Source: a virus
Length of the DNA stretch: 47,750 nt
UHGV virus genome: UHGV-1789659
Direction: 5' to 3' (one strand)
Below are positions 14,882 to 31,813 of the stretch, in pieces. The notes beneath the pieces were generated by a model that worked only from the letters and a program-made list of their open reading frames with translations, ran no database searches and was not told the DNA's origin. The position numbers and the translations under genes are program-made. Position 1 is the stretch's first letter, and every line of letters starts with the position of its first letter.

Positions 14882-15628
14882 ATGTCTAATACCCATGTAA
14901 AAAACATCAAACTTGGTGCCTGTAAGGTGTCGTTTGGTGGTGTGGATTTGGGTTACACCAAAGGTGGTGTTCAGGTTGAAGTAGCCACTGAAACGCAGAA
15001 AATCACCGTTGACCAGAGAGGTCAAACCGTAGTCTCAGAAGTAGTTATGGGGCGTAACATTACCATTACCGCACCTCTGGCCGAATCTGTGCTCCGAAAC
15101 ATGGTTGACCTGATGCCCGGTTCTACTCTGAGCGAAGATGACAACTCTGTCACGATCACATCTGCTCAGGGCGTAAACCTGATGGATGTAGCGAAGGAGC
15201 TGGTTCTGACTCCGCAGGACACCACCGACTATGTGTTGACCATTCCGAAAGCGGCAACCGCGGGCAACTTCACTATGACCTACCAGTCTGATGATGTTCG
15301 TGTGTTCTCTGTTCAGTTCAGCGCATACCCGGATGATGAAGGCGTTCTGGGCAAAATGAGCGGTCCCAAACCGGTAAAAACTGTGACGATCACACCGGAA
15401 TCTCCAACCGTAAAAGCTGGAGAAACTGTGCAACTGACAGCCGAAATCACTCCAGCTGATGCCGCAGACAAAACCGGTGTTTGGGAATCTGAAGACCAGG
15501 AAAAGGCCACGGTAGATCAAACGGGTCTTGTGCGTGGTGTGGTGCAGGGTACTGCAAACATCTCCTTCACCAGCAATAGCGGTGCTAAGAAGGCAACTAA
15601 GTCAGTAACGATTAACTCCGCAGATTAA
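14882..15628 (+). CDS. major tail protein with C-terminal Big_2 Ig-like domain
   Basis: ATG at 14882 after AAAAGGAG; C-terminal 80 aa carry the Big_2 pattern; sits immediately before the chaperone and tape-measure genes. Confidence 0.7.
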   Translation: MSNTHVKNIKLGACKVSFGGVDLGYTKGGVQVEVATETQKITVDQRGQTVVSEVVMGRNITITAPLAESVLRNMVDLMPGSTLSEDDNSVTITSAQGVNLMDVAKELVLTPQDTTDYVLTIPKAATAGNFTMTYQSDDVRVFSVQFSAYPDDEGVLGKMSGPKPVKTVTITPESPTVKAGETVQLTAEITPADAADKTGVWESEDQEKATVDQTGLVRGVVQGTANISFTSNSGAKKATKSVTINSAD

Positions 15629-15641
15629 TCAGTAATTAAGC

Positions 15642-15668
15642 AGAGGCTCAGGATGAGCCTCTCTTTTA
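15642..15668 (+). terminator. stem-loop terminator after the major tail gene
   Basis: AGAGGCTCA-GGA-TGAGCCTCT followed by CTTTTAAAA. Confidence 0.5.
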
Positions 15669-15683
15669 AAAGGATTTTAACCA

Positions 15684-16001
15684 ATGACCAAATTACTCGA
15701 TCTCGATTCCATTCTGCCTCCGAAGAAAAGTATCAAATTTGGCGGTCAGGAATATCCCATCGTTGAAATGACGGTAGGTCTGTTCGTTTCCATCAAGCAG
15801 ATGGAAGGTAAAGATCTCATGAACATGTCTCCTGTTGAGCAAGTGACAGCTTATGCAGATCTGGTTCGTAAGGTTATCCCTTCAGTACCTGACGAAGTTC
15901 TTGAAAAACTGACTGTTCCGCAACTCCAGCAGATCTTCACCTTCGCTATGGAAGTGATTGATGAAGAAAACGAAAAAGCGGCTGGCGAAGGGGCAAAGTA
16001 A
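15684..16001 (+). CDS. tail assembly chaperone (G-like)
   Basis: 105-aa acidic protein directly upstream of the tape measure; a -1 frame ORF overlaps its 3-prime end. Confidence 0.6.
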   Translation: MTKLLDLDSILPPKKSIKFGGQEYPIVEMTVGLFVSIKQMEGKDLMNMSPVEQVTAYADLVRKVIPSVPDEVLEKLTVPQLQQIFTFAMEVIDEENEKAAGEGAK

Positions 16002-16351
16002 TTTCCCGCGATGAATCCGGGACAAGGACCGTTTCAATAGATCTCGGATTCTATTTCAGTCGTGTAGTTGCTCACTACGCTGTGTCGCCATTAGAGCTAT
16101 TGAACATCCCTCTCACGATGTTCTGGATGCTCAGTCGCAATATAGACCGTCTGCGTGCGGAAGAGGATGTCCGCAACTTACAAGTCGCTCGTGCGTCCCA
16201 GGCGGATGGCGAGGCTGTGAAGGCGTTCATGGAGGGTTTGCAACTCAGGATTGGAAGACCAGTCGTAACAGATAAAGTCTACGATCCAAGCCAGGATAAG
16301 GCAGACCCTGACGCCAAAGAGCAACTGATGCAAATATTTGGCAGAGGATGA
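15965..16351 (+). other. -1 frame ORF overlapping the chaperone 3-prime end; putative G-T frameshift extension
   Basis: The -1 frame is open from 15965 to the stop at 16351, overlapping frame 0 for 34 nt; an A5 run (GAAAAAG, 15972-15978) lies in the overlap. Confidence 0.5.
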
Positions 16352-16358
16352 CAAGGGA

Positions 16359-19300
16359 ATGTCACAAAACGTAGAGTTTATCCTGTCGCTGGAAGACAAA
16401 CAGTTTACAGCGTCAATCGATCGTGCGGGGAAACTGCTTACTCGATTTGGTGAGCAGGTAACAAAGCCTGCTCAAAAAATCCAAACCTTTGAACGCTCTT
16501 TGGGTTCGGTCGCCCGTATCATTGGCGTTCTGGAAAGCAAGCTCGATTCTACGGCAGATAAACTACAGGATGTAGCTGCCGGTTTTGAGCTTGCTTCAGA
16601 TGCTACGCGTAAAATGCGTGGCAACATCACCAGCCTCAATTCTGGTCTTAAAGCCCTGATTGAGCGCGTCGATACGACAACTTCTTCAGTAGATAAACTC
16701 ACCGCGTCATTACGTAAAGTGCAATCAGAGCTAAATGATTTCTCTGATTGGGCGACCTATGCAAGCAAAAGCGCAAGCCGCTTTGGTACGGAGGTCAAAG
16801 AAGCCTCTGCGTCCGTGAGTGGCATGAATACGCGCCTTAATACCACGACGAAGCGACTCAGTAATTGGGGTGTCACAACGAGTCAGGCTGCCGAGGGACT
16901 GAAAAAGGTTCGTGAGCAGATGGACGAAGTTATCGGACGTCAGCAACTGATTAGCAAGCCGGTACGCGTTCGTACATCTGGAAGTGGCGATGGTGGTAGC
17001 GGGCAGCGTAGCGGCAGTTCTGGTCACAGCGGTAAAAATAACGAAGGAGGTATGTTCTCTGGCCTTCGTGGCAACATTTTCCTGCTTGGCGAGATCGGAG
17101 ATGCAGCCAGAACGGTTACTGACATCATGTTTGGGTGGCAGAAGCCTATTGTTGAAGCTGCGGCCGAAATGGAGCGTATGCGGGTGATGCTTCGAGGGTT
17201 GAATAAGGAGAAGTCCAACCCTGGCCAGGCTGCCGCTGATGATATGAAGTACATCGTAGACATGGCTCAAAATGCGCCGTTCGCGATGCAGGCGTTAACA
17301 GATTCCTTCGTGAAGTTTCGTTCTGCTGGCTTAGATCCAACCGATGGTTCTCTGAAGGCGCTGGTGGACTCCGTTGCTCGTTTTGGTGGTGATAGTGAGC
17401 TGTTGAAACGTGCGGCTGTGGCCGTTCAGCAGATGTCCGGTAAGGGCGTCGTGTCAATGGAAGAGCTACGTCAGCAATTAGGTGAAGCCGTTCCTAACGC
17501 GATGCAGGCAATGGCAGACGCCGCAGGCATCACTATGGGGGAACTGACTAAAGCCGTTGCCAGCGGTACGGTTGAGGCAAAACAGGCGTTGTCTCTGATG
17601 TTTGTTGGTCTGCGTGCGGAGAATGAGAACGCAGCGAAAGACATGATGCAAACCTACACAGGTGCGCTGGCGCAACTTCAGACGTCATTCACGTTATTTG
17701 CTGATCGGGTTGGTCAGGCCGGATATCTGGATTCTCTATCGAAGGGGATGAAAGAACTGGTTTCAATCATGAATAGCGCCGAAGGGATTTCGTTTGCCAA
17801 TTCTTTAGGCTCGGGGTTAACGACGGCAATCGATGGGTTGCGTCAGCTTGCTCAATGGTTAGCAAAGAACCAAGAGCTGGTAATTAATCTCGGTAAGGTC
17901 GTGGCCGCGATGGTTGCGTTCAAACTGATGCGAGCAGGGATCATGGGGGTAGTTGGCGCTGGCAGCCAGATGGTTAGCACCTTTGCCACGATGGCGACCG
18001 CCATACAGACTCCATTTAACCTCGGCGCTACAGCAGTAACTCGATTCAATCGTGCGGCACGTATGGGGCTGGCTCCGATCCCCTCTCTTATTTTCGCCAT
18101 CCGTGGGGCGATTACGGGGCTTAAAGGCGCTTTTGCTGGCTTGACTGCGTTTATTGCGGCGAATCCGATAGGTTTTGTTTTCACTGCTGCAATGACCGCT
18201 GTTGCTGGCTTAATCACGTATATGACCATGCTTCGTAGCGAAACTTCAAAGGTCGTTGACGAGATTAGGAAAATACCAGAAGCGATGACGGCGGCCAAAC
18301 GTGCACAGATGGCGGAGTATAAAGCGCGTCTCGAGCAACAAATCACGCAAAAGGAACAACAGTTAAAATCTGGCGAAAAGGTGGTTTATGGGCCGGGTAT
18401 GGCCGGAACCACAGTAAAGATTGATCAGGATGAACGGAAGCGAATAGAAACTGGGCTAAATGATCTTCGTAAGGAACTCGATAAAACTACTGGGGCTATT
18501 GAACGTGGAGACACAGCTGTTGCAAAACGTCTTGCAAAAGATGCGGCAGAATCACAGATAGAGAAAATACTCGAAGAGAATAAAGACTTTGCGGCAACAT
18601 TCGTTAAATCTCGTCAGGAGGCTCTGGAGAAGATTCAGAAAATCAAGGATGACGGTTCACTTTCAGATGACGAAAAGAACAAGCTATTGGCACCGTTACG
18701 TGAAACGGTAAACAAAAGCTATCTGAAACCAGCGCAAGAATTGATTGATTCACTTTCTTCTCGTAAGAATGCTGTCGAGGGGCAAATAGCCACTCTTAAT
18801 GATCAGCTTGAAAAAGCGAAAAGGGAAGGAAACACCGAGCAGATCAAGAAACTGCAAGGCAGTATTCGTGGTTATCAGGAGAATTTGGAAGTCGTCGCTC
18901 AGGAACTGACTCAGGCAGAGTTTAAGAGGGATAACGCGGCCAAAAGTGGTAATGGCTTAGTGTCAATCAATGGAGATGTTCTGGGGTTAGGTACAACTGA
19001 TAAAGCTGCTCAGAAGGCGCTGGCGCAATATATGCGAAACCAGATGGATTCTGCGACTTATCAGCGTACTTTGCCTGACGGCACTCCGATGATGGACTTC
19101 GAAGGTAAGCCGATTATTGGGCCTAAACAACTCAAGACGCAGCTTAATTTGCAGAAAGCATCCAGTGCCAGCTCTCTGGAGAAAATGAGCGATGAAGAGC
19201 GTGCCGCAGCCATTGCTGCACTGACTAAAGCTCGTGAACAGGATGCAGCAGCAGCCGAGAAAGCAGCCCAACGATCAGCTAACGCCTCGCAGCGTGCGGC

Positions 19301-20918
19301 CAAGAAGGAACAGGCAGCGCAACAGAAACTGGCAGCCGGATACCAGAAGGCTCTGGACAAAGCCGATCAGCTTATGGGGCAAATGGGTGAAAGCTCTAAG
19401 GCTACGGTATCGTTTGATCAGTCTCTTCGCGATACAACGAAATCGCTGACAGATTTGGCTAATGCGGTTCCTAACGAGTTCATCACTCAAGAGATGATCG
19501 ACAAGGCGAAAAAACGTCTTGAGGACCTCAAAAATGCGACACCTGAATATCGCGAGATGTTTAATCGCCGCAATGTTGAGCAGATGATCTCCACTTGGGC
19601 ACCGGAGGCGGATTCCATTATTAGTGCTGGCTATACGCCGTCTCGTGAAGAGAAAGTTGCTGATTTCGAAGACACTTACAACCGCAATCTCAAAGCGTTG
19701 ATAGAACTTCGTGATAAGGCGTCTGATCCTAAAGTTGTGGCGCTTTATACAAAGAAAATCAATCAACTTATTGCTGCTGGCAATACCGCGCTTATTAAAG
19801 AGACGGGGACCGCGACGCAGAAGTTGGCACTGGAATACGAAAACCTGGCAGAGCAGATCGAAAGCACCTGGACTGATTTGTTTAGTGGCTTAACGGATGT
19901 TCTGACTGATTTCGTTATTAACGGAAAGATGAGCTTCTCCAGCCTGTCTCAGTCCATTTTGAAAGATATCACCAATATGGTCGTGAAGTCGCAGATCACG
20001 CTGCCTCTAATGAACATGTTGGGGATGGGAACCACCGCAGCTGGTAGTTCACAGAGTGGTAATTTGCTGACCGGGGTTGCTTCCGCCGTTGCCAATCAAG
20101 GGGTACGAATGGGCAACACTGTTAACGGCGACAAGTCGGTAGGAGAAGCCACGAAGGAGACGTCCAGTTCGGTAACTGGATTGGGGCAAACAACACAGCA
20201 GACCACCAGCGCAATTGGCACTGCAACAAATGCGATTGGTAGCTGGGTATCAGGGCTATTTGATAGCACTGAAGCCAAAGATGCCGAGACAAAAGCCGTG
20301 AAGGACTCCATCTTCTCGATGCAGAACCTCAGCTCTGTTACCGGCGCGTTGTCTGCCGCGTTTGCAATGCTTGGAGCTAATGCTTCCGGCTCTGGTAATA
20401 AGTGGTTGAGTTTTGGAGCAACGGTTGCATCTGGTCTTGTTTCAGCTTGGGCTGGCGGTGGTTTCGACAGCGTGACATCAAGCTCTGCTAAAACCGCAAC
20501 CAGCAGTGTGGCTGACGGAACTAAAGGCATTCCTGCAATCCCGAAGTTTGCAAATGGAGGAATATTCGGAAAAGACGGCGTGATCCCGCTCCGGGCATAC
20601 CAGAAAGGCGGTATTGCTAACTCACCTCAATTGGCGTTGTTTGGGGAAGGTTCTATGAATGAGGCGTATGTTCCATTGCCTGATGGCCGAACAATCCCTG
20701 TAACGCTCAGTACCGATGGTATGAGTGGAGGAGGAAATGTTCTTTCTCCGGTATCAATTGAGATCAACGTCCATAGTGACGGTAGCACAACTGAATCCGG
20801 CGATACAGAAAGCATATGGAACAATGCCGCTCAACGGATGAAAGCAATCGCGCTTGAGACTATCGCGCAAGAGAAACGCCCTGGCGGATCACTCAACCCA
20901 AACACTCAACGTAACTAA
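16359..20918 (+). CDS. tail tape measure protein
   Basis: About 1520 aa, Ala/Gln/Lys-rich helical sequence with hydrophobic segments; ATG at 16359 after AAGGGA (ORF track opens at an upstream TTG). Confidence 0.85.
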   Translation: MSQNVEFILSLEDKQFTASIDRAGKLLTRFGEQVTKPAQKIQTFERSLGSVARIIGVLESKLDSTADKLQDVAAGFELASDATRKMRGNITSLNSGLKALIERVDTTTSSVDKLTASLRKVQSELNDFSDWATYASKSASRFGTEVKEASASVSGMNTRLNTTTKRLSNWGVTTSQAAEGLKKVREQMDEVIGRQQLISKPVRVRTSGSGDGGSGQRSGSSGHSGKNNEGGMFSGLRGNIFLLGEIGDAARTVTDIMFGWQKPIVEAAAEMERMRVMLRGLNKEKSNPGQAAADDMKYIVDMAQNAPFAMQALTDSFVKFRSAGLDPTDGSLKALVDSVARFGGDSELLKRAAVAVQQMSGKGVVSMEELRQQLGEAVPNAMQAMADAAGITMGELTKAVASGTVEAKQALSLMFVGLRAENENAAKDMMQTYTGALAQLQTSFTLFADRVGQAGYLDSLSKGMKELVSIMNSAEGISFANSLGSGLTTAIDGLRQLAQWLAKNQELVINLGKVVAAMVAFKLMRAGIMGVVGAGSQMVSTFATMATAIQTPFNLGATAVTRFNRAARMGLAPIPSLIFAIRGAITGLKGAFAGLTAFIAANPIGFVFTAAMTAVAGLITYMTMLRSETSKVVDEIRKIPEAMTAAKRAQMAEYKARLEQQITQKEQQLKSGEKVVYGPGMAGTTVKIDQDERKRIETGLNDLRKELDKTTGAIERGDTAVAKRLAKDAAESQIEKILEENKDFAATFVKSRQEALEKIQKIKDDGSLSDDEKNKLLAPLRETVNKSYLKPAQELIDSLSSRKNAVEGQIATLNDQLEKAKREGNTEQIKKLQGSIRGYQENLEVVAQELTQAEFKRDNAAKSGNGLVSINGDVLGLGTTDKAAQKALAQYMRNQMDSATYQRTLPDGTPMMDFEGKPIIGPKQLKTQLNLQKASSASSLEKMSDEERAAAIAALTKAREQDAAAAEKAAQRSANASQRAAKKEQAAQQKLAAGYQKALDKADQLMGQMGESSKATVSFDQSLRDTTKSLTDLANAVPNEFITQEMIDKAKKRLEDLKNATPEYREMFNRRNVEQMISTWAPEADSIISAGYTPSREEKVADFEDTYNRNLKALIELRDKASDPKVVALYTKKINQLIAAGNTALIKETGTATQKLALEYENLAEQIESTWTDLFSGLTDVLTDFVINGKMSFSSLSQSILKDITNMVVKSQITLPLMNMLGMGTTAAGSSQSGNLLTGVASAVANQGVRMGNTVNGDKSVGEATKETSSSVTGLGQTTQQTTSAIGTATNAIGSWVSGLFDSTEAKDAETKAVKDSIFSMQNLSSVTGALSAAFAMLGANASGSGNKWLSFGATVASGLVSAWAGGGFDSVTSSSAKTATSSVADGTKGIPAIPKFANGGIFGKDGVIPLRAYQKGGIANSPQLALFGEGSMNEAYVPLPDGRTIPVTLSTDGMSGGGNVLSPVSIEINVHSDGSTTESGDTESIWNNAAQRMKAIALETIAQEKRPGGSLNPNTQRN

Positions 20919-20960
20919 CTATCGACTGCCCCGACCGGGGCAGTCTCACAAGGATGTGAG

Positions 20961-21296
20961 ATGGAAAGACAAACGTTTAATTGGTATCCAGATTACGAAT
21001 CTGAAAAAAGCGTAAAACCGAATGTAACGGTACTTAATTTTGGTGATGACTACGAGCAGCGACAGGCTCAAGGTCTTAATCGTATTAAAGAAGAATGGTC
21101 GTTAACCTTTACCAGATCATACAACGAAATTAATGCAATCGATGACTTCCTGACTGAGCGATCAGGCGTTGAATCGTTCTATTGGGTTAATCCAAGAGGC
21201 AAGCAGATTGTAGTTGTATGTGACAGTCATACGGTCAAGCGATATCAGGGGTACTGTGTCTTAACAGCTACATTCAGACAAGTATTTGAGGCTTAA
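20961..21296 (+). CDS. minor tail protein M-like
   Basis: 111-aa ORF that shares a residue pattern with lambda M as recalled from memory (FGDxYxQR...GLN...FL.E..G...F.W); first gene after the tape measure. Confidence 0.6.
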   Translation: MERQTFNWYPDYESEKSVKPNVTVLNFGDDYEQRQAQGLNRIKEEWSLTFTRSYNEINAIDDFLTERSGVESFYWVNPRGKQIVVVCDSHTVKRYQGYCVLTATFRQVFEA

Positions 21297-21303
21297 GCAT
21301 CTG

Positions 21304-21325
21304 GATAAGTAAGTGCTAATTTACT
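21304..21325 (+). promoter_or_regulatory. GATAAGTAAGTGCTAATTTACT conserved motif
   Basis: GATAAGTA-family motif, followed by the GGCGCT...AGCGCC hairpin (21343-21365), upstream of the L-like gene. Confidence 0.4.
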
Positions 21326-21378
21326 ATCATTGTGGCGCTGACAGGATGTTAGCGCCTACTTATTTCAAGGATGAAACA

Positions 21379-22077
21379 ATGGGAATTAAAGCTGATATTC
21401 AGAGCTTATCTCCCTCTGCACTCATTGAGTTGTTCGTACTGGATATGTCGAACACAACTTCAGGGGGGAAGCTATTCTTCCACGCCGGAACAAACGAACT
21501 GATGCAACCGGTCGTCTGGCAAGGAGTGACATACGAGCCGTGGCCAATCAAAGCATCAGGCTTTGACAAAACGGGCCAGGGAACGTTGCCACGTCCAAAA
21601 ATTCAGGTATCGAACTTTGCCGGAACTGTCTCTGCGGAAGTTCAGGCAAACGACGATCTTGTTGGCTGCCGCATTATTCGCAAGATGACGCTGGCTCGCT
21701 TCCTCGATGCCGTTAATTTTAAAGACGGCAACCCAACAGCAGATCCAAACCAACATTTCCCGGATGAAATGTGGTTTATCGAACAGAAAACTCTCGAAAC
21801 TCATCAGGTTGTCGAGTTTGAATTGTCCAGTGTGTTCGATTTGATGGGGGTGCAACTGCCGTATCGTCAGATCATTAAAAATACCTGCCCGTGGAAATAC
21901 CGAGGGCCAGAATGCGGCTATACCGGTCCATATTTCGACAAAAATAACCAGCAGACGTCTATGTCTGGTGCGGATTACTGCACAAAACGTTATGACGCCT
22001 GTAATGCGCGTCGAAATTATTTTGCCGACGGTGTGATCCATTTTGGCGGATTTATTGGAGCTACGCGGTATGGGTAA
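21379..22077 (+). CDS. minor tail protein L-like
   Basis: 232 aa from ATG 21379; shares with lambda L (recalled) VWQG..Y.P.PI...GF, ARFLDAVNF and the Cys cluster CxWxYRGxECGY. Confidence 0.8.
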   Translation: MGIKADIQSLSPSALIELFVLDMSNTTSGGKLFFHAGTNELMQPVVWQGVTYEPWPIKASGFDKTGQGTLPRPKIQVSNFAGTVSAEVQANDDLVGCRIIRKMTLARFLDAVNFKDGNPTADPNQHFPDEMWFIEQKTLETHQVVEFELSSVFDLMGVQLPYRQIIKNTCPWKYRGPECGYTGPYFDKNNQQTSMSGADYCTKRYDACNARRNYFADGVIHFGGFIGATRYG

Positions 22078-22867
22078 TAAAGCAATCCCTGAGCTTGGCT
22101 CTGACGTTATGCAGCAAATCTATCTCTGCGCCATAAATCGCTACCCTAATGAAGCGTGTGGCTTTCTGGTTAGAACTAATGGCGACAAATATCGCTTTAT
22201 GGAAGCGCGGAATGTTTCGGAGAACCCGCAGAACACTTTTGTAATGCACGTTGACGACATTATGGCGGCAGAGGATGCGGGTGATGTTATCGCAATCTGG
22301 CATTCACATACTGATGAATCAGCAGAAGCATCTGATGCCGATCGTGCAGGCTGCGAAGCGACGGAAGTTCCGTGGATGATTCTGGCTATTCGCAAGAATG
22401 TTGAGGGAGATGCCCCTTTCCATTTTAGCGAGATGAATGTGATCACACCTGATGGTTTCGAAATGCCATACCTGGGCAGACCGTATGTATTTGGCGTATT
22501 CGATTGCTGGATGTTGTGTCGGGACTATTTGAAGCGTGAGTTTAACGTCGAACTAAACCCGAACGCACACCTGCATATTCCATCGTGGTACACCGGCGAT
22601 AACGACATTCTCGATCAGAACTACCGTAACGAGGGATTGGTGCGTCTTGCGCCCGGAACAGAGCCTCAACGTGGGGACATCTTCTTTATCCAATACGGGA
22701 AAATGCCTGACCACTGCGCGGTTTATATCGGCGATGGAATGATTCTTCATCACCAGATCGACCGCCTTAGTTGTCGTGCTTATTACGGCGGAATGTATCA
22801 GAAACATACGACGCATCACTTGCGTCACAGAGACTTGCTCAAGGGAGATGAGACGTGTCTGAGTTAG
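22070..22867 (+). CDS. tail assembly protein K-like (JAB/MPN plus NlpC/P60-type domains)
   Basis: JAMM-like WHSHTDESAEASDAD motif and a downstream Cys/His region (DCWMLCRDY...HH); start overlaps the L stop. Confidence 0.75.
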   Translation: MGNKAIPELGSDVMQQIYLCAINRYPNEACGFLVRTNGDKYRFMEARNVSENPQNTFVMHVDDIMAAEDAGDVIAIWHSHTDESAEASDADRAGCEATEVPWMILAIRKNVEGDAPFHFSEMNVITPDGFEMPYLGRPYVFGVFDCWMLCRDYLKREFNVELNPNAHLHIPSWYTGDNDILDQNYRNEGLVRLAPGTEPQRGDIFFIQYGKMPDHCAVYIGDGMILHHQIDRLSCRAYYGGMYQKHTTHHLRHRDLLKGDETCLS

Positions 22868-23448
22868 TTCATGTGCAGCTTGGCGGCTCTATGGCCAAAC
22901 ATTTTGGCCGCCACTGGCATCTAAAGGTGCGCAATACAAAACAGGCTCTGGATTTAATTGAGGCCAACAAGCCTGGGTTTAAAGCATGGATGAAGCGCAA
23001 CATCAAAACCTATGACAGATACCACATCCAGATCACCAATAAACAGGGCCACAAGTGGTCTGTGGACGAGAGTGAATATCAGATGATGGGGCAGTCTGAC
23101 AACATTGCCAAAATCCGCATTACCCCTGTTCCGCGAGGAAGCGGCGGTTCTGCTTTTGGGTGGTTTCAGACGGTAGTAGGAGCCGCTTTGTTGGTTGTAT
23201 CGGCGGTAATGATGCCTGCTTTAGCACCTCTCGGTTTGTCACTAATGATGGGCGGCATATCACAAATCATATCGCCGCAAGCCACTAACGAAAGTGTGAG
23301 GCAGGCGGATAACTCGAACTCTTATTATTTCGACGGCCCTCAAAATACAGAAAACCAGGGCAACCCAGTACAACTTATCTATGGTGAGGAAATTCTGGTT
23401 GGCTCACAGGTTGTGAGTTCTTCAATCACGATTGACCAGCTAATGTAA
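22855..23448 (+). CDS. tail assembly protein I-like
   Basis: 197-aa ORF between K-like and J-like genes with a hydrophobic C-terminal segment; GTG start as called by the ORF track. Confidence 0.6.
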   Translation: MSELVHVQLGGSMAKHFGRHWHLKVRNTKQALDLIEANKPGFKAWMKRNIKTYDRYHIQITNKQGHKWSVDESEYQMMGQSDNIAKIRITPVPRGSGGSAFGWFQTVVGAALLVVSAVMMPALAPLGLSLMMGGISQIISPQATNESVRQADNSNSYYFDGPQNTENQGNPVQLIYGEEILVGSQVVSSSITIDQLM

Positions 23449-23465
23449 ACAAGGATTTTTTGAAC

Positions 23466-26400
23466 ATGGAACAGTTCAAGAAGAAAAAGTTACCGCTGTT
23501 TATTGCAGGTGCGGGTGGTAAAAAAAGCAGCAAAAGCTCCAGCCGTACACCGGTTGAAGCCGACGATACCGTAAATTCTCGTGCAATGGCCGCTATCCTC
23601 GATCTTCTTGGGGAAGGTGTAATTGGCGGCTTGGTAAATGGCGCAAGATCTATTTTTATCGACGATCTGCCGATTGTAAATGAAGACGGTTCCTCCAACT
23701 TCAGCGGAATCACATGGGATTTTCGCGACGGTTCGCAAGACCAGACTCCAATGTCTGGCTTTGATTTCGTTGAAACGCCTAAATCCGTCAATATCCAGTT
23801 AAAAAAAACACATTATGTAACGGTTTCAATCGATAACGATGAAGCTGATCGGGTTCGTGTCATCATGAAGTTTCCTTCTTTGCGAAGCATAGATAAAAAA
23901 ACTGGTGACACGAACGGCACAACCGTTGAGTACAAGTTCCAGATAGCAAATGGCGACTCAACATTTGTAGATGTGGGCGCAGAAGGTGAAAAAAGCGTTG
24001 GCATTAAGCTAACAGCAAAAAAGACAGGTGTTTATTACCGTAGCTATGAGCTGAAGCTGCCTAAGCCTGGACGCGCGTACAAGGTTCGTGTAGTCCGTAT
24101 TACCGATGATAACAGCAGCCAGTATCTCTATAACGATACATGGGTGGACTCAATAGGTGAGATTGTAGATACACCGATGAACTACCCAAACTCTGTGCTG
24201 GTGGGTCTGAAGGTTAATTCTGAGCAGTTTGGTAGCACCATGCCATCTCGTTCGTATTTGGTACGTGGATTAAAAATTCGCGTGCCGTCAAACTACAACG
24301 AGGCCAGCAACACTTATGATGGTGTATGGGATGGCACTTTTAAGCTGTTGTCTTCTTCAAACCCCGCGTGGATTCTCTTTGATTTGCTTACCAATGCTCG
24401 ATATGGCCTTGGTCAGTATGTGTCGGAATCTATGATTGACCTCGGCCAGCTATACCAGATCGGTCGATATTGTGACGAAGAGGTTGATGATGGCTTTGGT
24501 GGTAAAGAGAAACGCTTTGCAATCAATACGCAGATCACCAGTCGACAGGACGCATACCGATTAATTCAGGATATTGCCGGTGCATTCCGCGGTATGGTGT
24601 TTTGGGCTGGTGGCATGGTTAACATCATGCAGGATAGCCCATCAGATCCGGTAATGATGTTTACCAACTCCAACGTCAAAGATGGATTGTTTACCTATAA
24701 AGGTTCTGCGCGTAAAGATCGCCCATCCGTTGCGCTCGTAACCTACAACAACAAGGAGGACGGTTATAAGCAAAACATCGAGTACGTTGAAGATCAGGAC
24801 GCAATGCGCCGTTATGGTGAGCGTAAAACAGAAGTCGTAGCATTTGGATGTACAAGCCGAGGCCAGGCTCACCGAGTTGGTTTGTGGCTTTTGTATACCG
24901 CCAGAATGGAGTCGGATGTAATTACATTTACTGCCGGCTTAGACGCCTCATTTCTGATGCCCGGTGAAACCGTTCTGATTCAGAACAAATATCGTGCAGG
25001 TAAACGTAACTCCGGTCGAATTGTGGAGTTTACCAAAAACAGCATCACTCTCGATGCGCCTGTGTCGTTAGCTAAAAGCGGCAGCTTTATTCGGATATTG
25101 AATCAGGAAGGCAAAATCGTTGAACGCGATGTTCTTGAAACTGGCGAAAACGTAACAAAGGTTACGTTTTCAAAAGCTCTGTCGTCAGCGGAAACGCCTG
25201 TTTTGAACGGTGTCTGGACAATTACAGAACCAGATCTCGAACCTATGCGCGTTCGCATCGTTAACATCGCGCAGGGGGAAACGCCGGGTAGCTTTGACAT
25301 CACCGCTGTTGAAAACAATCCGTCTAAATATGAGGCGATCGACAATGGTGCAACGCTTATCCCGCAGAATACGACGGTATTGGACCCGACTTACTCCAAG
25401 CCGTCTAATTTGCAAATCACTGAAGGGACTTACCTCTCAAGCCCGGGCAACCTGTCGGTAAAACTGACTGCAACATGGGAAGGGAAATCTCCAGAGTATT
25501 GGATCAGTTGGCGACGTTCTGATGAAAACAATGTATCGAACTGGCAATCGGCGCGTGTAACCGAAGAGCAATACGAAATCGTTAATGTCGCGGAGAATGG
25601 ACGCTACGACTTCCAGCTGTATGCGGTTTCATTCAACGGTAAAAAAACAGAGATTATCAGTACCGTTTATCAGGTGTTGGGCACAATGACACCGCCGGAT
25701 GCCCCAACGTCATTAACGGCCGTTGGAGACTATCGTAATGTGATACTGAATTGGGTTAATCCAGATTCGGTAGACCTTGATCACATTAATGTTTACGCAT
25801 CCCAGACCAACAATCTGGATACGGCGAAACTGATCGCAGAGTCTGCAAGCACCACCTTGACACATGCTGGTCTTGGGGATAGCGAAACGTGGTATTACTG
25901 GGTTCGAGCATCGAACAAGCGCGGCATGTTAAGTCCTCCGAACTCAAACTTGGGTACAGAGGCGACAACTCGCGATGTACTGTCGTTCCTGACTGGCAAA
26001 ATTACATCTTCCGAGCTTGGTCAGGCTCTGCTTGAGGACATCAACAGCAAAGCCTCTCAAGAAGCAGTTGACGAGTTAAATGAGCATATTAACCAGAGCG
26101 TCGAATCTTTGGAGGGGGCGGTAAACGACGTTAAGGAAGATATAGCTGAATTAGATAAGCAGTTCAGCGATAACCTCGCGGATTTTGAAATAAAATTCAA
26201 CGAGCGTAGCGATGCTTTGGAGAGCGCGCAAACCGAGCTTAAAGGTGAGGTTTCGGCAACGATCGACAAGGTCAATGAAGCGTTTGAAAAAATTGATGCT
26301 ACTGATGCTGCAATTGTTGAAATCGAAAACACCGTATCTGAACACGATAAAGCTCTCGCTAATACAGTCGAGGCAATAAAGGCTGCAAGAGACGAAGCGG

Positions 26401-28193
26401 CGGCTCTTATTGCTAAGGAAAGCGAGGCTCGTGTTGAAGGCGATGCTGCAAACGCTAAACAACTGGAAGTGTTGCAGTCAATGGTAGAGGAAAGCTCCGC
26501 TGCCGTTGAAGAAATGAAAAAGACGGTTGCAGAGGTCGATCGTGCAAGTGCAGAGCTGACTACGAACATTGAGGCGTTGGCCAAAACAAATATTGACCTG
26601 GCTCTTCGTCAAGATGAAGACCAGCACAAGCAGATGGTCAATAACGCGAAGATCGCAACAACACAGAAAACCTTTGCTGATGATATGTCTGCAATGGCCA
26701 CGAAGGTTGAGGAAATTCGCGTAGAAATTGGCGAAGACATTAAGGCCAGTATTCTGGAAGAGTCCACCGCTCGTGCCGATGGCGATGAAGCGTTGGCAAA
26801 GCGTGTCACTCAGCTGCAATCTAAGTTTGAAGGAGATATCAGCGCGGCGATTAGTACAGAGCAGGAGGCTCGTACATCTGCCGATGAAGCTCTGACGACA
26901 CAGATCACTCAGCTTGAGTCGAAAGTAAGCAACGATATCGTCGCAGCTATTAAGGAAGAGCAAGAAGCCCGAGCAACGGAAGATTCGGCTCTGGCAAGCC
27001 AGATCACCCAACTTCAGGCAAAGGTTGATGATGATATTTCTGCTGCAATACGTAGTGAGCAGGAGGCTCGAGCAAGCGGGGACTCTGCGTTAGCCAAACA
27101 AATAAACCAGCTTCAGTCAAAGGTTGACGGTGATATATCCGCTGCCATCACTCAGGAGCAGGAGGCCAGGGCAAGTGCTGACCAGGCTCTCTCACGAGAA
27201 ATTAACAGCCTGCGAGCACAGACCGGAACTGATATTGCCGCAGCGGTTGCTGTAGAGACAAAGGCAAGGACTGATGCCGATAGTGCATTGTCCACTCAGA
27301 TTACGTCTCTTACAGCAAAAGCTAATGATCTCGAGGCATCTCTTGCCAGAGAAACAACGGCTCGTGCAGATGGTGATACCGCTTTAACAAAAGAGGTTTC
27401 AAGTTTAAAAGCACAGACTGCGAAAGATATTAGTGCGGCCGTTGCAGTTGAAACGAAGGCTCGAACTGATGCTGACTCGGCGTTGTCATCTCAGATCACC
27501 AAGCTGACCTCTCAATATAAAGAGGATATTAAAGCGGCTGTAGCAACCGAAACGAAAACGCGTACAGAGCAAGATGCGGCACTGGCGACTCAAATCACAA
27601 ACTTAGAGTCTCAAACAGCAGCCAACATTTCTGCGGCGGTCGCAACTGAAACGACAGCGAGAACGCAGGCAGATAATGCTCTAAGTGGGCGAATCGATAC
27701 TCTGAAAGCAGAGGTGGATGGAAATACCGCGACAATTCAACAGCAGGCAACAGCCATTGCTGACACCAACAAAAAAGTCTCAACCGCGTGGACGTTGAAA
27801 ATGGAGACTTCAACGAGCGGAGGGCAGAAGTATGTTGCTGGTATTGCGCTTGGTATCGACACCACTGGCCTTTCTCAGTTTTTGGTGCAGGCGGACAGAT
27901 TTGGTTTGGTCAACTCTGTTAACGGGAAGATCACCACACCATTTGTTATCGAAAACAGCATCGCCTATATGAATGGTGCGTATATCAAGGATGGCACAAT
28001 CACCAATGCAAAGGTAGGCGATCTGCAATCGACCAATTTTGTTAGCGGTAGATCTGGATGGCGATTCGGCAAAAATGGAACGCTTGAGATCAACGGTAAT
28101 AGCGGCGGCAATGGGCGATTGGTCATAAATGGTCAGCGGATTGACGTTTATGACGATAACAACGTCCTCCGAGTGAGAATTGGCCTTCTGTGA
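23466..28193 (+). CDS. central tail fibre / host specificity protein J-like, with a long coiled-coil repeat insertion
   Basis: N-terminal 600 aa align by eye to lambda J (YPNSVLVGLKVNSEQFGS..., RVPSNYN...WDGTF, FGCTSRGQAHRVGLWLL); FN3-like segment; about ten tandem 33-aa repeats; ATG at 23466. Confidence 0.85.
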   Translation: MEQFKKKKLPLFIAGAGGKKSSKSSSRTPVEADDTVNSRAMAAILDLLGEGVIGGLVNGARSIFIDDLPIVNEDGSSNFSGITWDFRDGSQDQTPMSGFDFVETPKSVNIQLKKTHYVTVSIDNDEADRVRVIMKFPSLRSIDKKTGDTNGTTVEYKFQIANGDSTFVDVGAEGEKSVGIKLTAKKTGVYYRSYELKLPKPGRAYKVRVVRITDDNSSQYLYNDTWVDSIGEIVDTPMNYPNSVLVGLKVNSEQFGSTMPSRSYLVRGLKIRVPSNYNEASNTYDGVWDGTFKLLSSSNPAWILFDLLTNARYGLGQYVSESMIDLGQLYQIGRYCDEEVDDGFGGKEKRFAINTQITSRQDAYRLIQDIAGAFRGMVFWAGGMVNIMQDSPSDPVMMFTNSNVKDGLFTYKGSARKDRPSVALVTYNNKEDGYKQNIEYVEDQDAMRRYGERKTEVVAFGCTSRGQAHRVGLWLLYTARMESDVITFTAGLDASFLMPGETVLIQNKYRAGKRNSGRIVEFTKNSITLDAPVSLAKSGSFIRILNQEGKIVERDVLETGENVTKVTFSKALSSAETPVLNGVWTITEPDLEPMRVRIVNIAQGETPGSFDITAVENNPSKYEAIDNGATLIPQNTTVLDPTYSKPSNLQITEGTYLSSPGNLSVKLTATWEGKSPEYWISWRRSDENNVSNWQSARVTEEQYEIVNVAENGRYDFQLYAVSFNGKKTEIISTVYQVLGTMTPPDAPTSLTAVGDYRNVILNWVNPDSVDLDHINVYASQTNNLDTAKLIAESASTTLTHAGLGDSETWYYWVRASNKRGMLSPPNSNLGTEATTRDVLSFLTGKITSSELGQALLEDINSKASQEAVDELNEHINQSVESLEGAVNDVKEDIAELDKQFSDNLADFEIKFNERSDALESAQTELKGEVSATIDKVNEAFEKIDATDAAIVEIENTVSEHDKALANTVEAIKAARDEAAALIAKESEARVEGDAANAKQLEVLQSMVEESSAAVEEMKKTVAEVDRASAELTTNIEALAKTNIDLALRQDEDQHKQMVNNAKIATTQKTFADDMSAMATKVEEIRVEIGEDIKASILEESTARADGDEALAKRVTQLQSKFEGDISAAISTEQEARTSADEALTTQITQLESKVSNDIVAAIKEEQEARATEDSALASQITQLQAKVDDDISAAIRSEQEARASGDSALAKQINQLQSKVDGDISAAITQEQEARASADQALSREINSLRAQTGTDIAAAVAVETKARTDADSALSTQITSLTAKANDLEASLARETTARADGDTALTKEVSSLKAQTAKDISAAVAVETKARTDADSALSSQITKLTSQYKEDIKAAVATETKTRTEQDAALATQITNLESQTAANISAAVATETTARTQADNALSGRIDTLKAEVDGNTATIQQQATAIADTNKKVSTAWTLKMETSTSGGQKYVAGIALGIDTTGLSQFLVQADRFGLVNSVNGKITTPFVIENSIAYMNGAYIKDGTITNAKVGDLQSTNFVSGRSGWRFGKNGTLEINGNSGGNGRLVINGQRIDVYDDNNVLRVRIGLL

Positions 28194-28222
28194 TGTAGAA
28201 AAAAATATTTACATCGGTAAAA

Positions 28223-28240
28223 ATAAGTAGGTACTTACTT
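28223..28240 (+). promoter_or_regulatory. ATAAGTAGGTACTTACTT conserved motif followed by GGTGGGC hairpin
   Basis: GATAAGTA-family motif, then GTGGTGGGC-AAGGATA-GCCCACCA hairpin (28244-28268), upstream of the side fibre gene. Confidence 0.4.
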
Positions 28241-28285
28241 TGTGGTGGGCAAGGATAGCCCACCAAATCAAGGAGCATATTCAAC

Positions 28286-31200
28286 ATGTGGTACAGGGAA
28301 GGTACTATCACATTTACACAGGGTAGCAATACTCTGGTTGGTGTTGGAACAGCCTGGAACGTAACAGCTAATGGTGTGTTGCCGGGCATGATCGTCATTG
28401 GTCCCGACAATAAGCTGTATGAGATCAAGCGCGTAACAAGCGATACGAATATTGTTCTCTCAGAACCTTATACCGGCGAAACTCAGTCTGAAGTTCCGTG
28501 CCGAATCATTACGACCTATGAAGGCGACTTAACACAGTTTAGCGCGCGCTTTACTGCGCTAATGTCGCGTATGTCGGCTGATTCCAAGTCCATGCGCAGT
28601 TGGTTGACTGCTCTGGATGAGGTGACAATCGAGCGTGAAGACGGTACAGAAGTGACCGTTAAGCCGCTAATGCAGATCGTCAACGAGCACAACGAAAACG
28701 TTGAGTGGTATAAAAATAACACCGACGCGATAGACGCTGCTGGCGACAAAGCTCGTGAGGCGGCGGCCAGTGCTGCCGCAGCAGCAGAAAGCGCCAATAC
28801 CGCTGGAGAAAAAGCCTCTCAAGCGTCTCAAAGTGCATCCGCTGCGGCTTCCTCACAAAGTGCTGCAAGTGCGAGTGCAACTGCTGCGAAAAAATCTGAA
28901 ACGAACGCAGAAGCCGCAAAAGAAGCGGCAGCAGAATCAGCGTCTGTAGCATCGACCAAAGCATCGGAGGCTGCAACATCTGCGTCCAGTGCCTCTGCAT
29001 CTAAGGATGCAGCCAAAGCATCAGAGACTAACGCTTCATCGAGTGCAAACGCGGCGGCATCATCGGCAACAGAAGCTGCAAATTCGTCTAAGGCAGCAAA
29101 AACGTCAGAGACAAACGCAAAAGCATCTGAAAAGGCAGCCGAACAGAGTGCATCGTCTGCAAACAGTTCGAAATCTGCGGCAGAAGCGTCAGCCAGCGCA
29201 GCCTCAGCAAGTGCGGATAGTGCTTCATCGAGTGCAACTGCGGCAGGAAGAGCTGCGGAAAGCGCGTCTTCATCCGCGACAACAGCTACCACAAAAGCGA
29301 CAGAGGCGACGAGTCAGGCTACAGCTGCTAAAAATTCAGCATCGGCAGCAAAAACCTCTGAAACAAATGCAAAGGCCTCAGAAGACAATGCTGCTTCCTC
29401 TAAGGCGGCAGCTGCTGAATCTGCAAGTTCTGCGTCTGCATCAGCCACCTCGGCATCCGCTTCAAAAGATGAGGCGACCAAGCAGGCATCAGCAGCGAAG
29501 GGTAGTGCTTCAACGGCATCCACAAAGGCAACAGAGGCGGCAGGCAGTGCGACGGCTGCATCTCAGAGCAAAACTGCTGCCGAATCTGCTGCGACTCGTG
29601 CAGAAGCTGCTGCTGATCGTGCTGAAGAGATTGCCGGTGCAGTTGCGATGGAAGACGCAAGCCTTACAACTAAAGGTGTTGTGAAACTTAGTAGTGCGAC
29701 AGATAGCACCAGTGAATCACTGGCTGCAACTCCAAAGGCAGTTAAAGCTGCGAATGACAATGCGAATAGCCGATTGGCGAAGAACCAGAATGGTGCTGAT
29801 ATACCAGGTAAGGATACCTTCACGAAAAATATTGGCGCTGGTCGAGCATTTGGAGGCTCTGTAAGCACAACAGCAGGAAACTGGACTACGGCACAGTTTG
29901 TCGAATGGTTGGACTCTCAAGGGGCCTTTAATCATCCGTACTGGATGTGTAAAGGCTCATGGTCGTATGGCAACAACAAAATCATTACTGATACTGGTTG
30001 TGGCGATATTCATCTTGCCGGGGCAGTAATTGAGGTAATGGGGATAAAGTCCGCAATGACGATCCGCGTTACCACACCAACAACATCTAGCGGTGGTGGT
30101 ACTGCTAACGCTCAATTTACTTATATTAACCACGGGACAGATTATTCTCCAGGCTGGCGACGAGACTACAATACAAAATACAAACCTACGCCATCGGATA
30201 TAGGTGCATTATCAACATCAGGAGGGACGGTTTCAGGTCCGTTGTCTGTTACTGGTGGGTTAACTGGTTCATTGAATGGCAATGCGAGTACCGCCACGAA
30301 ATTGCAGACTGCAAGAACTATCGGCGGCGTGGCCTTCGATGGATCTGCGAACATAAATTTGCCTGGTGTAAACACGGCAGGTAATCAGAGCACCACTGGT
30401 AATGCCGCAACCGCTACAAAACTTCAAACGGCAAGAACGATTGGTGGCGTTTCATTTAACGGAACTGCCAACATCGACTTGCCCGGAGTTAACAAAGCTG
30501 GCAACCAAAGCACCACAGGTAATGCTGCTACAGCTACTAAATTGCAGACAGCAAGAACCATCGGTGGTGTTAGCTTCGATGGCACTGCGAATATTAATTT
30601 GCCTGGTGTTAATGCTGCCGGTAATCAGAACACTACCGGTAACGCGGCTACAGCGACCAAGTTGCAAACTGCGAGAACTATTAACGGGGTGTCGTTTAAC
30701 GGCTCTGCGAATATTTCGATACCAACAATTACGTCCAGAGGACGCGTTACTGCGCTCACAGGCACAACGCAAGGCGCTACTACTGGATTGCAGATGTACG
30801 AGGCATATAACAACGGCTATCCTTCGACTTACGGGAATGTGCTTCATCTTAAGGGGGCAACAGCCGTTGGTGAAGGCGAGTTGTTCATAGGTTGGAGCGG
30901 TACAAGTGGCGCTCATGCACCTGTACATGTACGTTCGCGACGAGATACTGATACAGCCAGTTGGTCAGAGTGGGCGCAAGTTTATACGTCCAAAGACTCA
31001 ATTCCAGGTGTCAATGCCACCGGTAATCAGAACACTACTGGCAATGCAGCATCAGCAACGAAGTTGCAAACTGCCAGAACAATTGGAGGTGTATCGTTTA
31101 ATGGTACCGCCAATATTAACTTGCCGGGCGTCAATATAGCGGGTAATCAGAATACGACTGGTAACGCTGCTTCAGCCACGAAGTTACAAACGGCTCGTAC

Positions 31201-31813
31201 TATTGGTGGTGTTAGTTTTAACGGTACAGCCAATATTAACTTACCTGGTGTGAATACGACCGGTAATCAGAACACTACTGGTAATGCTGCAACCGCCACA
31301 AAATTGCAGACAGCAAGGAAAATTGCTGGTGTGGCGTTTGATGGCTCTGCCGATATAACTTTGACTGCGGCTAACCTTAATGCTTATACGAAAACAGAGG
31401 TAACAAACCTTCTCAGTTCCTATGTGAAGAGTAGTTCTCTTCCAAGCATGACTGTGCGAACTTCCTCTGTTTCTGGTGGGGATATGGGCATGAGTTTGTC
31501 CACATTCATTAGCCACCTTAAATCAAATGGGGCATTTAGCAAAAGTTATTGGATTGGCTTTGGCGATGCTATGGGATTCAATGCTGGCAGTATCAACAAT
31601 ATAACGGGATTTGGTGCTGTAGAATTAGCAGAATCCATAATCGAAGTTTTTAATCTACCGAATGGTGATTATACAATTCGTTTAACGACGTCACACAAAG
31701 CTGACTACGGTGGGATTACAAACGCAATCCTCGTTTATCACTACCGCAGTAATAGAAACCCGACAGGTCAATGGCTTAAATTTGCCGGTACTCTTGGGGC
31801 TACAAACAACTGA
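28286..31813 (+). CDS. side tail fibre protein (Stf-like) with Ala/Ser-rich region and tail-fibre repeats
   Basis: AAKTSETNAKAS-type low-complexity region as in lambda Stf (recalled); eight copies of a roughly 40-aa repeat NQ.TTGNAATATKLQTARTIGGV.F.G.ANI.LPGVN. Confidence 0.8.
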   Translation: MWYREGTITFTQGSNTLVGVGTAWNVTANGVLPGMIVIGPDNKLYEIKRVTSDTNIVLSEPYTGETQSEVPCRIITTYEGDLTQFSARFTALMSRMSADSKSMRSWLTALDEVTIEREDGTEVTVKPLMQIVNEHNENVEWYKNNTDAIDAAGDKAREAAASAAAAAESANTAGEKASQASQSASAAASSQSAASASATAAKKSETNAEAAKEAAAESASVASTKASEAATSASSASASKDAAKASETNASSSANAAASSATEAANSSKAAKTSETNAKASEKAAEQSASSANSSKSAAEASASAASASADSASSSATAAGRAAESASSSATTATTKATEATSQATAAKNSASAAKTSETNAKASEDNAASSKAAAAESASSASASATSASASKDEATKQASAAKGSASTASTKATEAAGSATAASQSKTAAESAATRAEAAADRAEEIAGAVAMEDASLTTKGVVKLSSATDSTSESLAATPKAVKAANDNANSRLAKNQNGADIPGKDTFTKNIGAGRAFGGSVSTTAGNWTTAQFVEWLDSQGAFNHPYWMCKGSWSYGNNKIITDTGCGDIHLAGAVIEVMGIKSAMTIRVTTPTTSSGGGTANAQFTYINHGTDYSPGWRRDYNTKYKPTPSDIGALSTSGGTVSGPLSVTGGLTGSLNGNASTATKLQTARTIGGVAFDGSANINLPGVNTAGNQSTTGNAATATKLQTARTIGGVSFNGTANIDLPGVNKAGNQSTTGNAATATKLQTARTIGGVSFDGTANINLPGVNAAGNQNTTGNAATATKLQTARTINGVSFNGSANISIPTITSRGRVTALTGTTQGATTGLQMYEAYNNGYPSTYGNVLHLKGATAVGEGELFIGWSGTSGAHAPVHVRSRRDTDTASWSEWAQVYTSKDSIPGVNATGNQNTTGNAASATKLQTARTIGGVSFNGTANINLPGVNIAGNQNTTGNAASATKLQTARTIGGVSFNGTANINLPGVNTTGNQNTTGNAATATKLQTARKIAGVAFDGSADITLTAANLNAYTKTEVTNLLSSYVKSSSLPSMTVRTSSVSGGDMGMSLSTFISHLKSNGAFSKSYWIGFGDAMGFNAGSINNITGFGAVELAESIIEVFNLPNGDYTIRLTTSHKADYGGITNAILVYHYRSNRNPTGQWLKFAGTLGATNN

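Follow-up and report, generated by a model that had tools for sequence, protein, structure and literature searches.

The stretch of UHGV virus genome UHGV-1789659 analysed here (47,750 nucleotides, i.e. a 47.75-kb fragment, referred to below as the window) carries, between positions 14882 and 31813, a set of tail genes arranged as in phage lambda and, outside this region, replication and plasmid-maintenance genes. A reading made from the sequence alone had explained this combination by modules exchanged between a lambdoid phage and the backbone of a phage-plasmid. This explanation was not borne out, as the trees of the different modules are congruent, M, L, K, I and J reach no more than 29-40% identity to their lambda counterparts (BLASTP) and V to J have no DNA match in lambdoid phages. 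The sequence comparisons instead make it very likely that the lambda-type tail is an old, co-evolving part of a clade of phage-plasmids of ~100-110 kb, and not a recent lambdoid graft. A lambda-type tail by itself is not evidence of a lambdoid donor. As by-products, the head, tail and replication modules were found to co-diverge across six genera, and a map was obtained of the sites at which exchange is real, namely the distal tail fibre and the cargo slots.

Relatives of the window and co-divergence of its modules

The form of the replicon was judged from relatives. With positions 14000-36000 of the window as the megablast query, the top match was Escherichia phage Cyrano (the same element as plasmid pLF82 of E. 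coli LF82), with 95.7% identity over 95% of the query, followed by the E. coli phage-plasmids CMS-2020a and PhiR41_1 and then by Salmonella phage SSU5 (~80% DNA identity over 71% of the query). Cyrano/pLF82 and many E. coli plasmids matched the same region with 95-97% DNA identity over 93-97% of its length. In a plasmid collection, 913 records matched this query and 149 of them covered at least 80% of it. The top matches listed were nearly all from E. coli or E. albertii, with lengths of 107-120 kb and 95-97% identity, and the near-identical relatives of the window are circular plasmids of that size. The prediction of a phage-plasmid from an enterobacterial host was thereby upheld. The window encodes a full virion and lysis gene set (terS/terL, portal, capsid, connector, V to Stf, holin, endolysin and Rz) as well as a set for plasmid maintenance and its own replication (ParA, two ParB_N proteins, GNAT/TacA, DnaB-like helicase, primase and ligase).

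This gene repertoire and its synteny are common to the window, SSU5 and the plasmid relatives, by which the window is assigned to the SSU5 supergroup, an already published group of enterobacterial phage-plasmids, as an ordinary member (SSU5_pHCM2 or Cyrano/pLF82 type). The supergroup has conserved, co-localised phage core genes and is related to the 'AB' group of Acinetobacter (PMC7969092). Cyrano is an inducible siphovirus phage-plasmid with ~5.5 copies per cell, and siphovirus particles with a tail of ~259 nm were obtained after ciprofloxacin (PMC9928086). The finding is in this respect ordinary, this kind of element having already been described. Cyrano/pLF82 (OV696614 / NC_011917; SSU5_pHCM2 group) is collinear with window positions 5795-47457 at about 96-97% DNA identity, and its annotated genes follow those of the window from terS up to and including the tRNA cluster. 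The two share 96-100% identity in almost every core protein, including V to J and the products of the lysis, KacT-type toxin-antitoxin, ParA, helicase, primase and ligase genes. SSU5 (JQ965645), pHCM2 and the relatives from Enterobacter, Klebsiella (pKpn-type) and Yersinia (pMT1) have the same synteny and gene families, with core proteins 78-96% identical to those of the window in SSU5 and 71-95% in Klebsiella pJN2-26.

All fetched loci, from Salmonella, Enterobacter, Klebsiella, Moellerella and Acinetobacter phage-plasmids, carry in the same order an SF2 helicase, ParB-like genes, an ABC ATPase, terS/terL, portal and capsid, then V/G/T/tape measure/M/L/K/I/J, holin, lysin, ParA or Rep, the DnaB-like helicase, primase and ligase. 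The identity per gene declines in the same relative order for every module (Table 1).

Table 1. Protein identity to the window (%) for genes of different modules
Gene	Cyrano	SSU5	pJN2-26	Klebsiella STEFF_14	Moellerella	Acinetobacter
terL	100	96	95	90	80	60
L	100	96	88	75	60	53
K	100	92	86	76	57	39
Helicase	100	93	93	70	62	38
ParA	99	91	82	74	50	32

Concatenated protein sets were compiled for the head (terL, portal and major capsid protein, MCP), the tail (M, L, K, I and residues 1-860 of J) and replication (helicase, ParA and w36753). The neighbour-joining (NJ) trees of the three sets, with 7-9 phage-plasmids from six genera, had the same topology, and their pairwise distance matrices were closely correlated (Spearman 0.90-0.97, Pearson 0.98-0.995). 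Congruent phylogenies across modules, named beforehand as the result that refutes the mosaic reading, were thus obtained. The distribution of single proteins was similar. Among phage records, 12 L proteins were at least 80% identical to that of the window and the other 1734 were all below 60%, with none in between; outside the SSU5 group the best L in these records was that of Ralstonia prophages (49%), and that of lambda reached 40%. For the helicase, 11 phage records were at or above 90% and the other 3195 were all below 60% (about 25%). Among plasmids the identity of L falls gradually, from 99-100% in E. coli to 95-96% in Enterobacter, Yersinia pMT1 and Salmonella, 88% in Klebsiella, 75% in Klebsiella STEFF_14, 60% in Moellerella, 48-53% in Acinetobacter and 40% in lambda-like elements. 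The Moellerella and Acinetobacter elements, which hold the closest L outside the SSU5 supergroup, are other ~110-kb phage-plasmids of the same synteny.

From these gene identities, the synteny, the identity gradients and the congruent trees we infer a history of vertical descent, in which the whole arrangement would be ancestral to a clade of ~100-110 kb phage-plasmids of Enterobacterales and Acinetobacter and would have diverged in step. The proposed ancestral order would be SF2 helicase, two ParB-like genes, ABC ATPase, terS/terL, portal, capsid, the V to J tail, lysis, ParA, DnaB-like helicase, primase and ligase.

A recent gift of the tail module from a lambdoid phage to a phage-plasmid backbone, with palindromic elements as the joints, would account for the lambda gene order and protein families of the tail, for Stf segments that are 55-73% identical to lambda Stf and for the palindromes found at both ends of the tail operon. 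We consider such an event highly improbable. Neither high identity in the supposedly exchanged module nor lambda-like head and packaging genes or O/P-type replication genes were found: terS, terL, portal and capsid had no BLASTP match to lambda Nu1, A, B and E, V to J had no megablast match to any lambdoid phage, and the only DNA matches outside the SSU5 group lie inside Stf. The same tail is joined to the same backbone in the Moellerella and Acinetobacter phage-plasmids, and the tail tree agrees with those of the head and replication genes. The GC content is even (0.46-0.51) across the head/tail boundary at 14.9 kb and dips only in cargo regions, and the palindromes also occur inside modules.

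Some points weigh against uninterrupted co-descent. The NJ trees were built on p-distances for 7-9 taxa with no bootstrap or topology test, and their sequences were the best high-scoring segment pairs of tblastn searches rather than curated orthologues. Identity to Cyrano is patchy (91-100% across 500-bp windows), which corresponds to recombination among group members. Similarity to lambda is detectable in the tail-tip genes and not in the head genes, so that the tail module may have had a separate origin, very long ago. Moreover, pMT1 of Yersinia pestis keeps head and tail, and its lysis/ParA/helicase region is lost or replaced; replacement of large modules therefore does occur in the group. 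We regard pMT1 as a genuinely chimeric and probably defective relative, the large-scale mosaic being found in this relative and not in the window. In pMT1 (locus L009), IS100, IS256-family and IS1618 elements and unrelated genes occupy positions 31394-38657, after the tail fibre genes.

An exchange in deep time would have brought M-L-K-I-J from an unrelated lineage of siphoviruses into a common ancestor of the Enterobacterales and Acinetobacter groups, and the modules would have co-evolved since then. It would agree with tail-tip proteins of lambda families beside a terminase, portal and capsid without BLASTP similarity to lambda, and module-wise inheritance predicts the spread of M-L-K-I-J that is seen across Ralstonia, Pseudomonas, Burkholderia, Moraxella, Vibrio and T1-like phages and N15-like plasmids. 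However, the data fit plain vertical descent with unequal divergence rates of head and tail equally well, and no donor stands out, as the best L outside phage-plasmids (Ralstonia prophages, 49%) is no closer than that of Acinetobacter (48-53%). An exchange of this age is therefore possible, though in our view doubtful, and vertical descent of the whole arrangement remains the preferred explanation.

The N15/phiKO2 group consists of linear plasmid prophages with lambda-like virion genes, and its genome size, replication (telomerase/RepA) and partition systems differ from those of the window. Like the window, this phage-plasmid lineage joins a lambda-type tail tip to plasmid partition, and N15-like Klebsiella plasmids (~54 kb) carry an L homologue. 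N15-type phage-plasmids were rejected as the source of the lambda-like tail, since their L is only ~33% identical to that of the window.

The tail operon and the sites of exchange

The tail genes form a single array on the plus strand in the list of open reading frames (ORFs). Pfam matches were counted above the gathering score and the comparison with lambda was made by BLASTP. The lambda order V, G/T, H, M, L, K, I, J, Stf, noted earlier from the sequence, was confirmed by the array, Pfam and BLASTP together, as were the lambda-family signatures of the M-, L-, K- and J-like proteins (Pfam) and of the Stf-like protein (BLASTP). Pfam gave no match for G, T, I and Stf, which were therefore placed by position, BLASTP, PHROGs and comparative frame analysis. 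M, L, K, I and J belong to the lambda tail-tip families (by Pfam, by BLASTP and phrog_32 for I, and for L also by a match to PDB 8iyk_L, the lambda tail tip protein L, with E=4e-44). The region 14882-31813 is a siphovirus tail operon that encodes an Ig-domain tube, G/G-T chaperones, a tape measure, an M-L-K-I-J tip complex and a side fibre (Table 2).

Table 2. Positions of genes and sequence elements in the window
Feature	Position	Strand	Evidence or remark
V-like major tail (tube) protein, C-terminal Ig-like (Big_2) domain	14882..15628	+	Big_2 E=1.6e-24; start agrees with Cyrano CYRAN_12
G-like tail assembly chaperone	15684..16001	+	position between V and H; phrog_893 match
T-like ORF, -1 frame of G	open from 15965; T gene 16082-16351	+	frame analysis; overlaps end of G
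Tape measure protein (H-like), 1,519 aa	16359..20918	+	TMP_3 95.5 bits; Tape_meas_lam_C 49.1 bits
M-like tail tip protein	20961..21296	+	Phage_min_tail 121.5 bits; 31% to lambda M
L-like tail tip protein	21346..22077	+	start may be ATG 21379; Phage_tail_L 322 bits; 40% to lambda L
K-like tail tip assembly protein	22070..22867	+	Prok-JAB and NLPC_P60; 32% to lambda K
I-like tail assembly protein	22873..23448	+	29% to lambda I, E=1e-16; phrog_32 'tail assembly protein' E=3e-62
J-like central tail fibre / tip attachment protein	23466..28193	+	FNIII-A_GpJ, Phage-tail_3, Phage_Tail_Tip
Side tail fibre (Stf-like)	28286..31813	+	BLASTP to lambda Stf, 55-73% in two local segments
Two ParB-like genes (ParB_N proteins)	2541-3907		domain search
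GNAT toxin / TacA antitoxin cassette (variable cargo)	33643..34480	-	Acetyltransferase and TacA1 domains
ParA-type partition ATPase	34760..35428	+	MipZ, AAA_31, CbiA and ParA domains
DnaB-like replicative helicase	37546..38886	+	DnaB_C 50.2 bits
Toprim-type DNA primase	38915..40150	+	DNAG_N and Toprim_2 just below cut-offs; annotated as DNA primase in relatives
ATP-dependent DNA ligase	43479..44801	+	DNA_ligase_A_M 49.5 bits
18-bp palindrome, sites 1-4	2523-2540, 7815-7832, 9322-9339, 11238-11255		
18-bp palindrome, site 5, upstream of V	14813..14834		GTAAGTATATACTTAC conserved in five of six relatives, pJN2-26 having one substitution; followed by hairpin with co-varying stem
18-bp palindrome, site 6, M|L junction, inside tail module	21306..21323		followed by hairpin 21334-21356
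18-bp palindrome, site 7, J|Stf junction, inside tail module	28220..28241		
18-bp palindrome, site 8, between Stf and holin gene	31936..31953		SSU5 alignment resumes exactly at 31936
18-bp palindrome, sites 9-12	36731-36748, 42102-42119, 45240-45257, 45620-45641		
18-bp palindrome, site 13	5780-5793		in loop of large hairpin
Large hairpin, copy 1	5755..5813		upstream of terS; free energy about -31 kcal/mol
Large hairpin, copy 2	36595..36647		between partition and replication blocks; 18-nt arms, 100% complementary
AAACAAGTTGTTT sites	5851-5863, 5876-5888		upstream of terS
AAACAAGTTGTTT site	34712-34724		ParA
AAACAAGTTGTTT site	37514-37526		DnaB-like helicase gene

The likeness to the lambda tail comprises the gene order, the C-terminal domain of H, the M, L, K, I and J families, the Ig domain of the tube protein, the -1 frame relation of G and T and segments of Stf. 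In V it is limited to the C-terminal 80 aa, which are 34% identical to the Ig domain of lambda V; residues 4-244 are matched by phrog_885 ('major tail protein'), the match to the N-terminal domain being weak. By contrast, no sequence similarity to lambda was seen in the tube domain of V, in G and T or in most of H. H has ~1,520 aa compared to 853 aa in lambda, and J 1,575 aa compared to 1,132 aa; lom and tfa are lacking after the tail, and the head, replication and immunity genes are unrelated. In Cyrano, whose virion tail measures ~259 nm, the tape measure homologue has 1,525 aa (PMC9928086). The G-like protein is 94-100% identical in Cyrano, SSU5 and pJN2-26. Over 877 aligned aa the J-like protein has 32% identity to lambda J; its C-terminal third diverges from those of SSU5 and pJN2-26. 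Only the N-terminal 850-1,120 aa of J are common to the window and the Klebsiella, Acinetobacter and Moellerella phage-plasmids. The latter elements carry giant J homologues of ~2,540-4,290 aa (positions 29476-41613 in locus L004, 22106-34975 in L008, 22023-33701 in L007 and 11183-18793 in L006), with at least 4,000 aa in the Klebsiella types.

The G and T chaperones are linked by a -1 frame relation at the sequence level. The T reading frame, being open from 15965, overlaps the G stop codon at 15999-16001, and in 7 relatives, down to Moellerella at 44-52% identity, T again occupies the -1 frame, its overlap with G being 13-97 nt. The motif AAAGTAA at the G stop is kept in the window and in the 7 relatives. 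Together, the frame, the overlap and this motif are good comparative evidence for a G/G-T frameshift, and a G-T fusion is probably produced by a programmed -1 slip at A-AAG (15995-15998), just before the stop codon of G.

The window is collinear with Cyrano except for the distal part of Stf (29770-31244), which is replaced, two extra copies of an 88-bp unit (33086-33173) and an insertion at 40126-42100. In addition, w42162 is only 84% identical to its Cyrano counterpart, and patches of 91-94% identity lie within V, H and J. Compared to SSU5 and pJN2-26, the breaks are located at the J C-terminus, most of Stf, the toxin-antitoxin cassette, the gene of a DUF2971 protein (only 50% identical) and the 40-43 kb region.

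Residues 202-496 of Stf are 55-73% identical to lambda Stf (BLASTP), and its distal 680 aa contain segments with 73-82% protein identity to the P1 S fibre and to fibres of phage Goslar, phi458 and lambdoid phages, whereas the alignment with Cyrano is limited to the first 517 aa (86% identity). Internal repeats with a 120-nt period extend from 30242 to 31423. On these local matches, Stf is the one clearly mosaic tail gene, and the pattern of its distal part is the familiar exchange of fibre segments. With gene S of P1/P7/D6 and lambdoid Stf only segments are shared, at about 80% DNA identity for the distal part, and the window lacks both an invertible C-segment and a U/Tfa gene. No plus-strand ORF of at least 80 aa is present between the Stf stop codon (31813) and the holin start (32017), i.e. 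no Tfa/U-like gene, and Cyrano is alike in this respect. In lambda, P1, pMT1 and SSU5, unlike in the window, an adhesin or assembly gene lies downstream of the fibre gene; in SSU5 an adhesin and a Cor-like gene follow Stf.

The 1.98-kb insertion at 40126-42100 separates the primase gene from the conserved gene that follows and has a low GC content (~0.42). It encodes a 417-aa Sel1-repeat protein (40142-41395, minus strand) and a 137-aa ORF (41623-42036), and its right end falls exactly at an 18-bp palindrome. It was not found in Cyrano, SSU5 and pJN2-26, and is 99.5-99.8% identical in six plasmids of Escherichia or of uncultured source. An insertion sequence was considered and rejected, since no transposase domain was found in the Sel1-repeat gene and the small ORF that make up the insertion. 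Other E. coli plasmids carry the Stf variant and the Sel1 insertion, each with 97-99.8% identity, the top plasmids differing between the two; together with the patchy identity to Cyrano this points to homologous recombination within the group. As judged from the alignments, only the distal Stf, the toxin-antitoxin cassette, the DUF2971 gene and the Sel1-repeat insertion show recent mosaicism. Recent exchange would have involved only the receptor-binding part of the tail (distal Stf and J C-terminus), small cargo cassettes inserted between conserved transcription units and short patches of homologous recombination among group members.

Palindromes and hairpins at gene junctions

The motif TAAGTA-NN-TACTTA has 20 matches in the window with up to 2 mismatches, compared to 1.2 expected. 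Its extended consensus is the 18-bp palindrome TAAGTAAGTACTTACTTA, present at 13 loci, 12 of which lie in non-coding DNA (8% of the window). Each site is located at most ~140 nt upstream of a plus-strand gene, and that at 45620 also adjoins a minus-strand ORF. The sequence-only reading had placed these elements at module boundaries. This holds for both ends of the tail module (sites 5 and 8), whereas further copies lie inside modules (terL|portal, portal 3' end, MCP|Ig, M|L and J|Stf), upstream of the ParB-like operon and upstream of three genes of the replication region. The palindromes thus mark gene and operon junctions generally, and not module joints. The corresponding junctions of Cyrano, SSU5, pMT1, Enterobacter and both Klebsiella types carry them too; in Moellerella and Acinetobacter they are rare, and lambda has none.

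In alignments, the palindrome appears as a conserved island in diverging intergenic DNA; ~5 nt behind it there is a hairpin with co-variation in its stem, then a Shine-Dalgarno (SD) sequence and the start codon. The palindromes are therefore most likely expression signals at gene junctions, acting as operators or promoters, usually with the hairpin, SD sequence and start codon behind them. Ordinary sigma-70 promoters could not be supported: a consensus scan of 14000-33900 gave 10 promoter-like sites compared to 24.8 in shuffled sequences, i.e. fewer, and the few overlaps of palindromes with weak -10-like hexamers are not evidence. None of the papers covered by a full-text library search contains the palindrome sequence, and Rfam gave no family match. 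Tentatively, TAAGTAAGTACTTACTTA might be an undescribed transcription-control signal of the SSU5 group, maybe the operator or promoter of a global regulator of the phage-plasmid that switches the virion genes between the plasmid and lytic states; if so, it would also define the insertion slots of cargo cassettes. The palindrome-plus-hairpin element is the only mildly novel item of this analysis, as a candidate regulatory signal of the group.

Two near-perfect hairpins of ~60 bp (GACCTGCTTCCGTATATA ... TATATACGGAAGCAGGTC, about -30 kcal/mol), 30.8 kb apart, bracket the packaging-to-partition block and not the tail module. The database records of SSU5 and Cyrano begin (linearised) inside copy 1. 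Relatives from E. coli, Salmonella and Enterobacter have both hairpins, the first copy was seen in the fetched stretch of pMT1, and neither was found in the Klebsiella types at up to 3 mismatches. A third palindrome, AAACAAGTTGTTT, occurs twice upstream of terS and once each upstream of ParA and of the DnaB-like helicase gene. It has 13 matches at up to 2 mismatches compared to 2.6 expected and may be an operator or centromere-like site.

Palindromes and large hairpins could also, instead of or besides controlling expression, serve as recombination linkers that promote the exchange of cassettes or modules. Several breakpoints agree with this: homology resumes at the very first base of the 31936 element for SSU5, at 42101 beside the element at 42102 for Cyrano and at 36557/36588 beside the hairpin at 36595 for SSU5 and pJN2-26, and the elements are conserved islands in otherwise diverging DNA. 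We consider linkers unlikely, however, as this handful of breakpoints is set against at least 7 of the 13 sites at invariant junctions (terL|portal, portal 3' end, MCP|Ig, upstream of V, M|L, J|Stf and upstream of ParB). The left-hand cassette boundaries lie at stop codons and not at elements, and the co-varying hairpin, SD sequence and start codon downstream suggest control of transcription or translation. As expression signals, the palindromes would be conserved along with the downstream gene, which would explain why some cassette boundaries abut them. If cargo enters behind a stop codon and ahead of the conserved control region that belongs to the following unit, right-hand boundaries next to such elements are expected, as seen at 31936, 42101 and about 36560-36590.

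Replication, maintenance and minor features

Domain searches confirmed that the helicase, primase, ligase, ParA and toxin-antitoxin genes, described earlier as non-lambdoid, are real and are not of lambdoid type. The start of the primase gene is annotated further downstream in relatives. An ABC-type ATPase and the two ParB_N proteins are encoded upstream of terS. The GNAT (KacT/TacT-type)/TacA cassette is present in the window and in Cyrano and was not found at this position in the SSU5, Enterobacter, Klebsiella, Moellerella and Acinetobacter relatives; in Enterobacter and in Klebsiella STEFF_14 a HEPN-domain gene occupies the slot. The SSU5-type relatives share the palindromes at the same junctions with the window and differ from it by the lack of this cassette and, in pMT1, of the lysis/ParA/helicase region.

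Genes for tRNA-Asn(GTT), tRNA-Thr(TGT) and tRNA-Ser(TGA) are located at 46393-46546 and 47193-47279, as in Cyrano; SSU5 and pJN2-26 have only tRNA-Asn. The Rfam scan returned two tRNAs and nothing else. Finally, an 88-bp unit over the endolysin stop and Rz start codons is present in three exact tandem copies (32998-33261; 100%, 100% and 99% identical), and as a single copy in Cyrano, SSU5, pJN2-26 and the best plasmid match. The triplication may be genuine, produced by slippage, or an artefact of the assembly; an intact endolysin is kept through the first copy and an intact Rz through the third.

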